In this document: piece by piece, positions 6,822 through 14,623 of the stretch
How the letters are laid out: every line of letters begins with the position of its first letter
Position numbering within the stretch: the stretch's first letter is position 1
Virus record (IMG/VR): IMGVR_UViG_3300005844_000023
Coordinates: 1,507-65,506 of that record
DNA: 64,000 nt
Reading direction: 5' to 3' (one strand)
Origin: a virus
Lineage: Duplodnaviria > Caudoviricetes
Position numbers and translations under genes: made by a program
Notes under the pieces: generated by a model
What the model was told of the DNA's origin: nothing
The model's input: only the letters and a program-made list of their open reading frames with translations
The model's database searches: none

Positions 6822-6890
6822 ATTGCAGTCCGTGTCGTCTCGCAAGAGACGACACGAACGGCAATCCTGCCGAAGACGATGGAGACTGAC
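6822..6890 (+). repeat. Structured intergenic repeat, copy 1
   Basis: ATTGC-AGTC-11-bp stem/GCAA loop-AACG-GCAAT-CCTGCCG...GGAGACTGAC. Confidence 0.85.
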
Positions 6891-6891
6891 G

Positions 6892-7179
6892 ATGGGTGCT
6901 CACAATTGTTCGATGACGTTTCGCGCCGATACCTTCGCGCAAGCCAAGGAAAAGGCGATGACGTTTCAACGACAAGAGCAATACGAGAACGGCCACGGTG
7001 GCTACAGCGGCCATCTCGGCACCGCCGGGGTCGGCGTGCAACGCGTGTTGCAGACGTTCGCAACGCGCGAAGCCGCCGAGGAATGGATTCTCGACAACCA
7101 CAAGAAATGGGACGTGCCGATGCTTGCCCGCATCGGCAACACCGACGAATGGCTTCTCGCCGGTTGGTGTGCCTCCTGA
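6892..7179 (+). CDS. Early hypothetical protein
   Basis: Start follows repeat copy 1. Confidence 0.75.
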   Translation: MGAHNCSMTFRADTFAQAKEKAMTFQRQEQYENGHGGYSGHLGTAGVGVQRVLQTFATREAAEEWILDNHKKWDVPMLARIGNTDEWLLAGWCAS

Positions 7180-7245
7180 ATGCAGCGCATGCGCCGAGAG
7201 CATCGGCGCATGATCGGCATTCCGCCGAAGACGATGGAGACTGAC
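7178..7245 (+). repeat. Structured intergenic repeat, copy 2
   Basis: GAATGC/GCATTC outer stem, 10-bp inner stem, GGAGACTGAC. Confidence 0.85.
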
Positions 7246-7247
7246 AG

Positions 7248-7400
7248 ATGTGCAAGATCAACAACGGCATGTTCGCTTATTGGTCCGCCCTTTGCGAACG
7301 CAACCACGACGACCCGATCGGCGTCACCGCCGAGGCGTTCGACGTCGAACGCATCGAGGTCGAATTGGTTGTCGGCAACGATCTCGCCCACGAAGACTGA
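7248..7400 (+). CDS. Early small acidic protein (MCKINNGMFAYWSALCER...)
   Basis: Read manually between repeat copies 2 and 3. Confidence 0.7.
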   Translation: MCKINNGMFAYWSALCERNHDDPIGVTAEAFDVERIEVELVVGNDLAHED

Positions 7401-7468
7401 AATGCAGCCCATGTCGTTGCGCAAGCAACGGCATGAACGGCATTCCGCCGACAACGAAGGAGACTGAC
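7401..7468 (+). repeat. Structured intergenic repeat, copy 3
   Basis: AATGC/GCATT outer stem, inner stem with GCAA loop, GGAGACTGAC. Confidence 0.85.
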
Positions 7469-7672
7469 ATGACCATCGAATTCCGAACCAACGAATACCG
7501 ATTTGCTCACGGTCACACACCGCGTGGCTACGGCAATTGGGCATTCTTCTTTCATCCGTCGCGTCGCATCGAAGACGCGTTTTGGGTGTGGGGAATGTAT
7601 TCGGAAGCGAAGAAAACCGCTCGCGTCGAGGCCAAACGCCGAGACGTCGAGGAAGTTTTCGTCGGATCATAA
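7469..7672 (+). CDS. Early hypothetical protein (MTIEFRTNEYRFAHGHTPRGYGNWAF...)
   Basis: Start follows repeat copy 3. Confidence 0.75.
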   Translation: MTIEFRTNEYRFAHGHTPRGYGNWAFFFHPSRRIEDAFWVWGMYSEAKKTARVEAKRRDVEEVFVGS

Positions 7673-7730
7673 TGCAGCGAAGCGCGCCTCTCAGGCGGGG
7701 CGCGTCACGGTGCATTTTGAAAAGGAGACA
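7671..7730 (+). repeat. Degenerate structured repeat, copy 4
   Basis: AATGCA/TGCATT outer stem, variant inner hairpin, GGAGACAC. Confidence 0.55.
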
Positions 7731-7733
7731 CCA

Positions 7734-7925
7734 ATGACTGAGGAAGATTTCCGCAAGGCGCTGGTCAAGCTTGGCATCAAGACCCAAGCCGAGGCCGCCG
7801 CCGTGCTCGGCGTGAAACTTCGCACCGCGAATGGCTACGCCAACGGAATGAAGATACCGGCAATGGTTCAACGTTTCCTGCAAGTCTTGCAGGAGACGAA
7901 ATACCCGGTGCAGAAATGGTTCTAG
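7734..7925 (+). CDS. Small XRE/Cro-like HTH protein
   Basis: LGIKTQAEAAAVLGVKLRTANGYANG...IP fits an HTH_XRE pattern. Confidence 0.7.
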   Translation: MTEEDFRKALVKLGIKTQAEAAAVLGVKLRTANGYANGMKIPAMVQRFLQVLQETKYPVQKWF

Positions 7926-7988
7926 ATTGCAGCCGATAGCCGTCGAGGGCGGCTATCAACGGCAATCCTGCCGACAATGGAGACTGAC
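7925..7988 (+). repeat. Structured intergenic repeat, copy 5
   Basis: GATTGC/GCAATC, inner stem GATAGCCGTC/GGCGGCTATC, GGAGACTGAC. Confidence 0.85.
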
Positions 7989-7990
7989 CG

Positions 7991-8215
7991 ATGGCCTTCA
8001 AACACAAGAAGGTTCTGCATTGGGATGACGAGCGCCCATATGGCAACGGTTACATCGTGACCACTGGTTACGGCTGGGCGTTCGAGCCCCACGAAGATCA
8101 TAACAATGCTTGCCACGTTCGCGGTTTCGACACCGCGCGCGAGGCTCGCGCCGATCTCAAATGGGTCGAGCCGTGCTCATGCCTTCGATGCACGTCCAAA
8201 GGCAAAGAGGGATAA
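7991..8215 (+). CDS. Early hypothetical protein with C-terminal CxCxxC
   Basis: ORF follows repeat copy 5. Confidence 0.75.
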   Translation: MAFKHKKVLHWDDERPYGNGYIVTTGYGWAFEPHEDHNNACHVRGFDTAREARADLKWVEPCSCLRCTSKGKEG

Positions 8216-13085: not shown

Positions 13086-13179
13086 AGCCTTGTCATTGGC
13101 GATCGATCAGGCGCAAGCCAAGGTCTTCAACGGCGACGTGAAGAAGGCTTTGGTCATCATCGAGATCACGACCGACTAG
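13003..13179 (+). CDS. Small acidic hypothetical protein
   Basis: ORF between repeat copies 11 and 12. Confidence 0.7.
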   Translation: MATKQELDDAEIATITVTQARELEVENEALSLAIDQAQAKVFNGDVKKALVIIEITTD

Positions 13180-13250
13180 ATTGCAGCCCATGCGCCGCCG
13201 CAAGACGGCGCATGACCGGCAATCCTGCCGACAACGTGGAGGCTAAAAAA
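13179..13250 (+). repeat. Structured intergenic repeat, copy 12
   Basis: GATTGC/GCAATC, GCAA loop, CGGCAATCCTGCCG, GGAGGCT. Confidence 0.85.
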
Positions 13251-13520
13251 ATGGCTGATCCCAACCCCAATGCCAATGTAAACAGTTCGATCGATCGACG
13301 GCGCGAAGAGCGTCAGATGGCCGATCAGCTCGGGCAAGAAGCGATCAACCGCGTGACCGAACTCACCGCCGGTCAATTGGCGATCTGTCAGGCGCAGATC
13401 GCGTTCGTCGCTACCGCCGCGCATTACCTCGGCGACAGCTTCAACGCCATTGCGCATGCCATGTCGCAGATGATCCAGCAGACCGAAAGGGCGCGCGACG
13501 AAGCCAAGCGCCGCGCGTAA
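13251..13520 (+). CDS. Helical hypothetical protein (loosely phasin-like composition)
   Basis: ORF follows repeat copy 12. Confidence 0.65.
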   Translation: MADPNPNANVNSSIDRRREERQMADQLGQEAINRVTELTAGQLAICQAQIAFVATAAHYLGDSFNAIAHAMSQMIQQTERARDEAKRRA

Positions 13521-13543
13521 GCTGATACGGCCCAGATTCGGGG

Positions 13544-13575
13544 GAGGGGGCGCAACCACGCGCCCCCTCTTCTTT
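13544..13575 (+). terminator. Intrinsic terminator-like hairpin GAGGGGGCGC/GCGCCCCCTC + TTCTTT
   Basis: 10-bp GC stem followed by a T-rich tail. Confidence 0.55.
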
Positions 13576-13637
13576 GATTGCAGCCCATGTTCGTCGTGGC
13601 GAGCATGAACGGCAATCTTGCCGACATGGAGACTGAA
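13576..13637 (+). repeat. Structured intergenic repeat, copy 13
   Basis: GATTGC/GCAATC, CATG/CATG stem, GGAGACTGAA. Confidence 0.85.
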
Positions 13638-13638
13638 C

Positions 13639-14016
13639 ATGAAACCAACCGCAATGGTTCCGCGCGAGGCGTTAGCGCGGAAACCCAAGCACGGCTCTCC
13701 CTGCAACGGGTGCGGGCTGTGCTGCATGGCGACGCGATGCATCGTCGGCAAGCATTTGTTCGGCGGCGAATTCGGGGTCTGCCCCGCGTTGATGCGCGTC
13801 GACACCAACGGATACACCTGCGGTGCGGCACTGATGACGTCGGGGCCGACACGCGACGCGGTCATGTTGCTCATTCGCGCTGGCGAGGGCTGTGATGCCC
13901 GCTTCAACGGCGAATGGATCAACGCCGCGTTTCACCGTCAGCAAGACGAAGCCGACGCGCGCAACGCCGACGCCATCGCGCAAGCGAAGGCGATGCTCGG
14001 GATCAAGGGAGACTGA
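13639..14016 (+). CDS. Cys-rich protein (CNGCGLCC...C...CP...C), possibly Fe-S or Zn binding
   Basis: CxxCxxCC motif. Confidence 0.65.
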   Translation: MKPTAMVPREALARKPKHGSPCNGCGLCCMATRCIVGKHLFGGEFGVCPALMRVDTNGYTCGAALMTSGPTRDAVMLLIRAGEGCDARFNGEWINAAFHRQQDEADARNADAIAQAKAMLGIKGD

Positions 14017-14018
14017 CA

Positions 14019-14276
14019 ATGATCAACCAGATGGAAAAAGACTTTCGCCGCTTGTATCGCGAGCGCGTAGGCAAGGCGGCCGAGGACATCATCGAACTGT
14101 GCGCGATCGCGGGGTTGCCGCATGCGGTCGCGTTGCAAATCATCGCGGTCGAAAGCCTGTCGTTCGTGGCGACTCTGACATCGCAATTCACCAGCATGAC
14201 CGAGCAGGACTTCGCTTATTTTACGAACATCGCGTTCCGCAACGCGCGCGCCGAGCAAAAAAGAGAGCAGTCGTGA
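14019..14276 (+). CDS. Hypothetical protein
   Basis: GGAGACTGAC start. Confidence 0.7.
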   Translation: MINQMEKDFRRLYRERVGKAAEDIIELCAIAGLPHAVALQIIAVESLSFVATLTSQFTSMTEQDFAYFTNIAFRNARAEQKREQS

Positions 14277-14530
14277 GCACGCGCCCGATCCTGCCGCCCG
14301 TGCTCGTACCGTTGGAACACCTGCACGAACTGGAGAGTCTCAACAAGACCGAATTGATCGATCTGTGCTGGTGGATATGCGTCTCGCGCGGCTCGTTCCT
14401 GCTATCGCCGCTCGGGGAGTTTCGCCTGCATCGCGATCGCGTGCTGGCGATCCGTGCCACCGAGGATTGGCATTTGAGAAAAGAAAAAAAAGCTTGCGCC
14501 CATGCCATCCCCGTCCAACCATCTGAATAG
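14273..14530 (+). CDS. Hypothetical protein
   Basis: GTGA overlap with the upstream gene. Confidence 0.5.
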   Translation: MSTRPILPPVLVPLEHLHELESLNKTELIDLCWWICVSRGSFLLSPLGEFRLHRDRVLAIRATEDWHLRKEKKACAHAIPVQPSE

Positions 14531-14534
14531 CGAC

Positions 14535-14623
14535 ATCGCAGCCCATACCGCAGCACACCGCTGCGGTATGCACGGCGATCCCGCCGCGAACGTCACAGAC
14601 GTTCGAACACAATGGAGACTGAA
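14535..14623 (+). repeat. Structured intergenic repeat, copy 14 (with an extra 3' hairpin)
   Basis: ATCGC/GCGAT, perfect 11-bp inner stem, CGGCGATCCCGCCG, GGAGACTGAA. Confidence 0.85.

Follow-up and report, generated by a model that had tools for sequence, protein, structure and literature searches.

A Conserved Intercistronic RNA Element of Phage Early Operons Found at Gene Junctions That Hold Type II Hammerheads in Relatives

An element of about 55 nt occurs in 14 copies, in 14 intergenic spacers of the operon at 6597-15503 of the DNA analyzed here (the window), which is a 64-kb stretch of a 65.5-kb IMG/VR viral contig (IMGVR_UViG_3300005844_000023). It was found that this element, called the motif below, is a real folded RNA element that acts as sense-strand RNA, and that type II hammerhead ribozymes (hammerheads) stand at the orthologous gene junctions of relatives. 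We tentatively read the motif as an intercistronic RNA-processing module, a functional analogue of these hammerheads that would be cut by a host double-stranded RNA (dsRNA) nuclease, and we give this interpretation somewhat less than an even chance. A first-pass annotation of the window had located the repeats correctly, all 14 copies being found again, and had described in each of them two mutually exclusive helices, both with compensatory changes.

Fold, strand and placement of the motif

Copies of the motif were collected by scanning IMG/VR with sequence patterns, the first of which was too loose, gave mostly chance matches, and was rejected. The pattern scan yielded 37 loci, about 33 of them real, and a covariance model (R1) was built from 8 equal-length seeds with the 3′ tail left unpaired; therefore, the second helix of the first-pass annotation was not favored by the model. 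A second IMG/VR pattern, in which the base of the stem was not fixed, added 29 loci. Searches with the model gave 58 and 36 copies, and after removal of duplicates there were 86 distinct copies from 55 loci, at 1 to 14 copies per viral record. The covariation and folding figures given below rest mostly on a 57-58-copy alignment, and the consensus and loop counts on the 86 copies.

The consensus is N-U-GAUYGC-A-G-CC-[stem-loop]-A-N-C-G-GCRAUC-NN-GCCG-R. From the base upward, the fold consists of a 6-bp outer helix (GAUYGC/GCRAUC), an A·G mismatch, a G-C pair, a 2x2 loop (CC opposite AN), and an apical stem. The internal loop AGCC/ANCG is conserved, and the apical stem, which measures 9-11 bp (10±1) in 84% of the copies, is variable in sequence, as is its loop. 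The long helix was 96.5% paired, with double changes at 15 of its 18 pairs, and neither any of 500 shuffles nor any slid register matched this. At the outer pair between columns 6 and 67, there were 35 U-A, 12 C-G, and 10 U-G combinations and no mismatch in 57 copies (permutation p<5e-5), and rarer variants of the outer helix were likewise compensated (AAUUGC/GCAAUU, UGUCGC/GCGACA, GCUUGC/GCAGGC, and GAAUGC/GCAUUC). Because the outer-helix region has no gaps and is held in register by invariant bases, the bias introduced by fitting the alignments to the covariance model should be small there. The compensatory changes that the first-pass annotation had reported for the outer helix are therefore borne out by the statistics of columns 6 and 67 and by the shuffles. 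A possible seventh outer pair (columns 2 and 72) also showed an association (p<0.0005), which is partly an alignment or subfamily effect and is not relied on.

The motif acts as sense-strand RNA because G·U pairs greatly outnumber A·C mismatches (92 versus 13), 18 of 37 tetraloops are of the GNRA or UNCG type where about 2 are expected (a roughly ten-fold excess), the model scores far lower on the reverse strand, and every copy lies on the same strand as the flanking open reading frames (ORFs). The placement is also regular. In the window, the copies run from the upstream stop codon to a point 10-40 nt short of the next Shine-Dalgarno sequence. For 45 of 58 copies, helix bases 1 and 2 are the G and A of the UGA stop codon of the upstream ORF, the variants with UAG or a shifted UGA retain the helix, and in nearly all copies a same-strand ORF with a Shine-Dalgarno sequence (SD) begins 10-41 nt past the tail. 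The flanking genes are small ORFs, mostly lacking annotation, and differ between phages. No common neighboring protein that might be a dedicated partner was found across the examined flanks, in which the commonest family was GcrA (7 of 30 loci).

Rfam 15 contained no match to the motif at the gathering threshold, and none at E<=10 for the twister, twister sister, pistol, hatchet, hepatitis delta virus (HDV)-like, hairpin, or glmS families; a literature search for the motif sequence gave nothing relevant. The family therefore appears to be new, in that no Rfam entry or sequence-bearing paper was found for it. It resembles the RAGATH candidates (Weinberg et al. 2015/2017), as far as these are described in PMC6765202, in being a conserved RNA structure of ribozyme-rich, phage-like contexts, but it matches none of such families present in Rfam 15. 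When the motif was threaded by eye, the registers appeared to misfit the HDV-like, twister, pistol, hatchet, and hairpin-ribozyme architectures, as well as a model substrate of RNase P (helix plus RCCA).

Type II hammerheads at the same gene junctions

Canonical-core type II hammerheads were found in at least 9 motif-bearing loci by a core-plus-fold filter (core pattern ggNc-GAAAC-hairpin-GUC-hairpin-CUGAYGA-gNcc), on the strand of the motif and at adjacent gene junctions, and two of them scored 30.6 and 32.4 bits with the Rfam model RF02276. The order at locus L146, for example, is hammerhead, 68-aa ORF, motif, 155-aa ORF, hammerhead, ORF, hammerhead. Another contig (L133), related to the window through a neighboring protein of 53% identity, has 7 repeats between its genes, which score 22-32 bits with the type II hammerhead model and so fall short of the Rfam gathering score of 37. 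These L133 hammerheads have an additional U between CUGAUGA and stem II.

Two orthologous junctions could be compared directly. Between the AAA ATPase gene and phrog_11021, the window has the motif (copy 7), L144 has a tail-less copy of the motif (5397-5453) that retains the hairpin, L134 has a hammerhead, L133 has hammerheads around an inserted gene, L129 has a terminator-like hairpin, and L131 has nothing. Between phrog_11021 and phrog_11784, the window again has the motif (copy 8) and L134 again has a hammerhead. In the window itself, no hammerhead was found by Rfam at E<=10 (6400-15000) or by the core regular expression combined with the fold filter. A trans-acting hammerhead encoded in the window that cuts the repeats was ruled out, as no plausible core was present there.

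The motif and the type II hammerheads thus have in common the same contigs, the same strand, adjacent slots, and the orthologous junctions of relatives, and both lie, beginning at the upstream stop codon, between small early or accessory genes of the same orientation. When a type II hammerhead cuts, the upstream product keeps stem III at its 3′ end and the downstream product begins with stem I. The outcome would be alike if the motif were cut between its two hairpins, in that the upstream product would end in a hairpin and the downstream one would begin with another. The motif differs in having no CUGANGA/GAAA core, three-way junction, or Rfam match, and self-cleavage of the motif is conjectural. 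In prophages, clustered hammerheads that flank single genes have been shown to cleave polycistronic RNA both in vitro and in vivo (Perreault et al. 2011, PMC3088659).

The short hairpin and the function of the motif

The first-pass annotation had proposed that the CGGC segment of the 3′ strand, which pairs in the long helix, can instead pair with the downstream tail in a short hairpin. This much is correct, in that the GCCG tail is conserved and the two folds are near-isoenergetic, and the short-hairpin variants had also been listed correctly for each copy. The tail lies 2-3 nt past AUC in nearly all matches, although it was absent from the first search pattern. The statement that the short hairpin also covaries was not confirmed. 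The four pairs of its CGGC/GCCG core are invariant (C-G in 55, G-C in 55, G-C in 57, and C-G in 57 of 58 copies) and therefore carry no covariation, and the fifth pair (A-U 17, G-U 12, G-C 5, and unpaired 23) is formed at the frequency expected by chance. By permutation, 34 of 57 copies were paired at this position versus 33.6 expected (p=0.53), a Fisher test of A/G versus U/C gave an odds ratio of 1.0, and in the window copies only, 8 of 11 were paired versus 8.1 expected (p=0.79). A weak copy at L151:5902-5969 (30 bits) has U in place of C63 and the tail CCA, so that UGG/CCA would retain a 3-bp short hairpin; it is the sole possible short-hairpin compensation seen, and is anecdotal.

A two-state switch would be expected to show covariation in both helices, and this was found for the long helix and not for the short hairpin; it would also be expected to have folds of comparable stability, and this is the case. 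The median ΔΔG between the folds was 1.8 kcal/mol (57 copies), with a median long-form probability of 0.96. In a nearest-neighbor model, the long form was favored by 0.2-2.8 kcal/mol in 9 of the 11 window copies that were folded, and the short-hairpin fold was slightly the more stable in copies 1 and 3. When the 5′ strand was removed, the short hairpin, which by itself has a stability of -7.2 kcal/mol, was predicted with a probability of about 1.

The description of the helices as mutually exclusive holds for one part of the long helix. Inner pairs 7-66, 8-65, and 10-63 compete with pairs 63-78 to 66-75 of the short hairpin, whereas its 4-bp core shares no position with the outer pairs that covary (3-6 with 67-70). 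Covariation is confined to these outer pairs and the apical stem, and the inner pairs are as invariant as those of the short hairpin. Three interpretations fit the invariant inner pairs, namely a segment with two partners, a protein footprint, and a pseudoknot of GAUY/RAUC with CGGC/GCCG, and the data do not separate them. The proposal of a conformational switch is partly supported in that CGGC is complementary both to the upstream GC(A)G and to the downstream GCCG, all of which are invariant; covariation of the second helix was absent. As these three segments are invariant amid freely covarying neighbors and the two folds lie close in energy, the motif may plausibly have a two-state design.

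Two further suggestions of the first-pass annotation concerned the consequences of such a switch. Control by exposure of the SD found no support, in that predicted SD accessibility did not change consistently between the states, and the loop AUC residues that had been proposed to pair with the SD are accounted for by their pairing in the outer helix. The other suggestion, that cleavage of the long form frees a 5′ hairpin, gains circumstantial support from the exchange with type II hammerheads in orthologous slots, although the evidence first given for it, from the second helix, was wrong. Compared with riboswitch and attenuator platforms, the motif is similar in having a strand with two possible partners, an invariant shared segment with covarying flanks, and folds of similar stability, but it lacks an aptamer, a terminator, consistent sequestration of the SD, and covariation of the second helix. 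No repeat was called as an intrinsic terminator (a GC-rich hairpin followed by a U-tract) by a terminator scan, and no U-tract lies 3′ of the repeats. A three-way junction of the 5′ strand with the downstream start region, which appeared in some minimum-free-energy folds of window copies, was rejected because the complementarity in the 86 copies equaled that of shuffled controls (p=0.42). The 5′ strand AUUGCAG of copies 1, 3, 5, 6, 9, and 10 can pair with CUG(A)CAAU of the start region.

In the processing interpretation that we tentatively favor, an endonuclease, most likely RNase III of the host, would cut the long helix at the internal loop or close to it, as in the early sites of T7. The upstream message would retain the apical hairpin at its 3′ end, and the freed 3′ strand, CGGC-RAUCNN-GCCG, would refold as a hairpin with which the downstream message begins. 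Each product would thereby be protected, and the 9-kb transcript would be converted to single-gene messages. The ideal substrate of RNase III has 22 bp, internal loops result in single-strand cuts, the resulting 3′ hairpins stabilize RNA, and the T7 early mRNA has five RNase III sites (Nicholson 2014, PMC3867540). For a signal of this type, with a length of ~20-22 bp or two turns, the motif provides 6 + 1 + 1 + 2 + 10(±1) = ~20 bp-equivalents, the internal loop AGCC/ANCG, an intercistronic position from the stop codon to the next SD, and a single terminator at the end of the operon. The motif is like the T7 R1.1-type signals in being intercistronic, in a long early transcript, and present in several copies per genome, in consisting of irregular dsRNA that spans about two turns and in which an internal loop separates the lower stem (~8 bp) from the upper stem (~10 bp), and in that the upstream product would retain a 3′ hairpin. 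It differs from them in that its core nucleotides are conserved across unrelated-looking phages, its conserved 3′ tail can refold with the 3′ strand of the lower stem, and it coexists with hammerheads; moreover, RNase III cleavage of the motif is proposed by analogy.

Several observations weigh against this interpretation. RNase III has little sequence specificity, and the ~16 near-invariant nucleotides (GCAGCC, CGGC, and GCCG), found across phages with almost no common flanking genes, are the main argument against plain recognition by this enzyme. Orthologous slots also hold a plain hairpin or nothing, and therefore elements that share a slot need not share a function. Only 1 copy is present in many complete phage genomes, ~8-10% of the copies have no tail, and the short hairpin is without covariation support. 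Because of the near-invariant core in particular, alternatives in which the motif is read by a protein or the ribosome, is a passive stabilizer, or is a ribozyme stay alive.

It is unlikely that the motif is a regulatory element that is read without being cleaved, although the fixed register of the stop codon over the helix base would be accounted for if a terminating ribosome did the reading. A ribosome stopping on the UGA would open the 5′ strand, the 3′ strand would snap into the short hairpin, and the short-hairpin state would mark translated messages and tune coupling or re-initiation at the next gene. Retention of the UGA in 8-9 copies at which no ORF ends is difficult to reconcile with this, as is the lack of a consistent difference in SD accessibility between the states, whereas the near-isoenergetic folds are consistent with it. 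In the version with a protein, an RNA-binding protein of the host or the phage would bind the motif. The internal loop and tail, both conserved, resemble a protein footprint, and in a subfamily of copies an extra 3′ hairpin repeats (U/C)UG(C/G)CG in its loop, but no co-occurring protein family was found in the flanks. For both versions, the occupation of the same slots by hammerheads suggests cutting and not binding. A passive stabilizer or insulator hairpin, similar to a repetitive extragenic palindrome, that blocks 3′ exonucleases and isolates cistrons is in our estimate quite unlikely. The short hairpin would then never form, and GCCG would be conserved for an unrelated reason, which agrees with the predicted dominance of the long helix and with the copies that have lost the tail but kept the hairpin (copy 4 and L144:5397-5453). 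Such a hairpin has no need of an invariant internal loop, a stem fixed at 10±1 bp, or a conserved complementary tail.

A new class of self-cleaving ribozyme of ~55 nt, which would replace type II hammerheads between phage early genes without a host enzyme, seems improbable to us. The logic of slot equivalence and interleaving with hammerheads is that by which twister, twister sister, pistol, and hatchet were found, from context shared with hammerheads, but most other structures from hammerhead-associated contexts did not cleave when tested (PMC6765202). In favor of a ribozyme are the absence of a dedicated protein partner in the flanks and the ~16 nearly invariant nucleotides, several of which are unpaired (A9, C11, C12, and G64); against it are the very simple architecture, the lack of likeness to a known ribozyme family at E<=10, and the lack of a closing helix with downstream sequence. 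Such a ribozyme may fold as a pseudoknot, in which S1 (GAUY/RAUC) is stacked on S2 (CGGC/GCCG) and the invariant GCAGCC strand may lie in the groove and build the active site. Only S1 and the apical stem covary, and so a pseudoknot is as compatible with the data as a continuous helix, but a 2-nt loop across the minor groove of a 4-bp stem is probably too short. It is very improbable that the motif functions as DNA, at a module boundary or recombination site of gene cassettes comparable to integron attC sites or T4-type promoter-stem-loop cassettes. Such cassettes would agree with the presence of one copy for each small, unrelated gene, with conserved ends around a variable center, with flanking genes that vary between phages, and with slot contents that are exchanged between relatives; however, the asymmetry of G·U over A·C and the excess of GNRA and UNCG loops indicate RNA, the copies never depart from the strand of their neighboring genes, and in many complete genomes there is a single copy. 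In addition, a promoter scan found no sigma-70-like promoter within or beside the repeats, and no recombinase was seen near the array in a search that was not exhaustive.

The punctuation of phage early operons by hammerheads is known. As the motif takes the place of the hammerhead at orthologous gene junctions, it provides a clean natural experiment. If the motif self-cleaves, it is a new ribozyme class; if it is cut by a host nuclease, phages switch freely between enzyme-free and enzyme-dependent production of single-gene messages; in that case the tail, conserved and able to refold, would amount to a built-in, cap-like 5′ hairpin. The covariance model allows annotators to mark such elements.

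Copies and genes in the window and in other phages

The copies in the window are given in Table 1. The 12 intact copies scored 40-74 bits with the covariance model, and copies 4 and 11 are degenerate.

Table 1. Positions of the motif copies, the early operon, and its terminator in the window (bit scores are from the R1 model).
Feature	Position	Strand	Bits	Remarks
Early operon	6597-15503	+		Rightward; ~19 mostly small genes; holds all copies of the motif; from ORF and SD scan
Copy 1	6819-6873	+	54.8	UGA stop overlaps helix base; GCAA loop; tail CUGCCGA; predicted short-hairpin probability 0.56
Copy 2	7176-7228	+	47.7	Outer helix GAAUGC/GCAUUC; 4-bp short hairpin
Copy 3	7398-7451	+	49.4	Outer helix AAUGC/GCAUU
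Copy 4	7670-7717	+		Divergent; missed by R1; AAUGCA/UGCAUU outer helix and 9-bp stem kept; no GCCG tail; fold -30.2 kcal/mol, z -4.4 versus shuffles
Copy 5	7923-7974	+	54.1	
Copy 6	8215-8268	+	58.2	
Copy 7	10318-10376	+	51.5	ATPase/phrog_11021 junction; GAUCGC/GCGAUC; 6-bp short hairpin; extra hairpin at 10377-10396
Copy 8	11190-11244	+	73.2	phrog_11021/phrog_11784 junction
Copy 9	11967-12021	+	52.1	
Copy 10	12479-12533	+	72.3	UUCG loop; fifth pair of short hairpin is an A/C mismatch
Copy 11	12945-12990	+		Decayed; 5′ strand and stem kept; 3′ strand and tail lost; upstream stop reads TGG; fold no better than shuffles (z -0.7)
Copy 12	13177-13231	+	74.4	Nearest to consensus; fold z -4.4
Copy 13	13574-13624	+	62.8	Preceded by terminator-like hairpin (13545-13573) instead of ORF end
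Copy 14	14532-14587	+	39.6	CAUCGC/GCGAUC; extra hairpin 3′ of the copy
Intrinsic terminator	15515-15552	+		Strong; closes the operon; 13-bp stem and T8

Because the stop ahead of copy 11 reads TGG, the ORF from 12549 is read through to 13085, across the remnant and into the start of the next gene at 13004. Directly 5′ of copy 13, the terminator-like hairpin (GGGGGAGGGGGCGC...GCGCCCCCUCUUCUUU) that was read by eye lies inside the operon, and copy 13 retains the UGA, yet no ORF ends there. The scan of the operon for strong terminators on the + strand called only the one at its end.

By gene content, the window belongs to a tailed phage, with a terminase, a major head protein, a 1425-aa tape-measure protein, RecT, a helicase, and a GcrA/MT-A70 pair. 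The products of the operon matched only phage families of unknown function in PHROG, in addition to the AAA ATPase. The GcrA gene (PF07750, 109 bits) adjoins that of the MT-A70 methyltransferase (91 bits), at 21878-22480 (-) and 22504-23085 (-). The GcrA family is linked to Alphaproteobacteria, and the presence of GcrA in the window therefore suggests an alphaproteobacterial host; GcrA homologues (~30% identity) are encoded in six other motif loci (L010, L059, L103, L145, L155, and L165). A search with R1 of 4 + 151 genomes of one alphaproteobacterial order, in which few candidates were scored per genome, found no copy, and among the 120 matches listed from a pattern scan of genome contigs, all were chance matches without the hairpin. 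The motif family is compact and widespread: besides the phage of the window, about 50 uncultured phages carry it, which are siphovirus-like and probably infect Alphaproteobacteria.

Most genes of the operon have a common start region, GGAGACUGA(C)(A)AUG, which gave 25 matches versus 11 expected. This unusually long region was seen at at least 20 sites on the + strand, nearly all of them directly ahead of a start codon, including 6587-6599, 8710-8722, 11775-11787, 14008-14021, 24108-24120, 26703-26716, and 27985-27998, plus the starts that follow each repeat. It is independent of the motif because it is also present at genes without an upstream repeat. The exact complement of the shared start region, GUCAGUCUCC, is present at 17723-17732, in a non-coding leader (17610-17832) on the - strand.

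Copies of a subfamily with the tail CAGCCGG have an extra hairpin just 3′ of the tail, with the hexaloop UUGGCG, UUGCCG, or CUGCCG, followed by CAACAYAGCGAGGA (L148:215-253, L156:292-332, L292, L146, L310, L153, L103, L307, and L290). The YUGCCG loops, which duplicate the tail, show complementarity to the CGGCAA sequence in the 3′ strand, and at least five of these loci (L146, L148, L156, L292, and L310) also bear hammerheads. In the hammerhead-bearing relative L133, a promoter-like unit of 70-80 nt (TTGACG...N17...TATTAT/TAGAGT, with an A/T palindrome ahead of it) occurs five times in the early region, at 112-190, 1859-1932, 2495-2573, 3000-3078, and 5510-5588.

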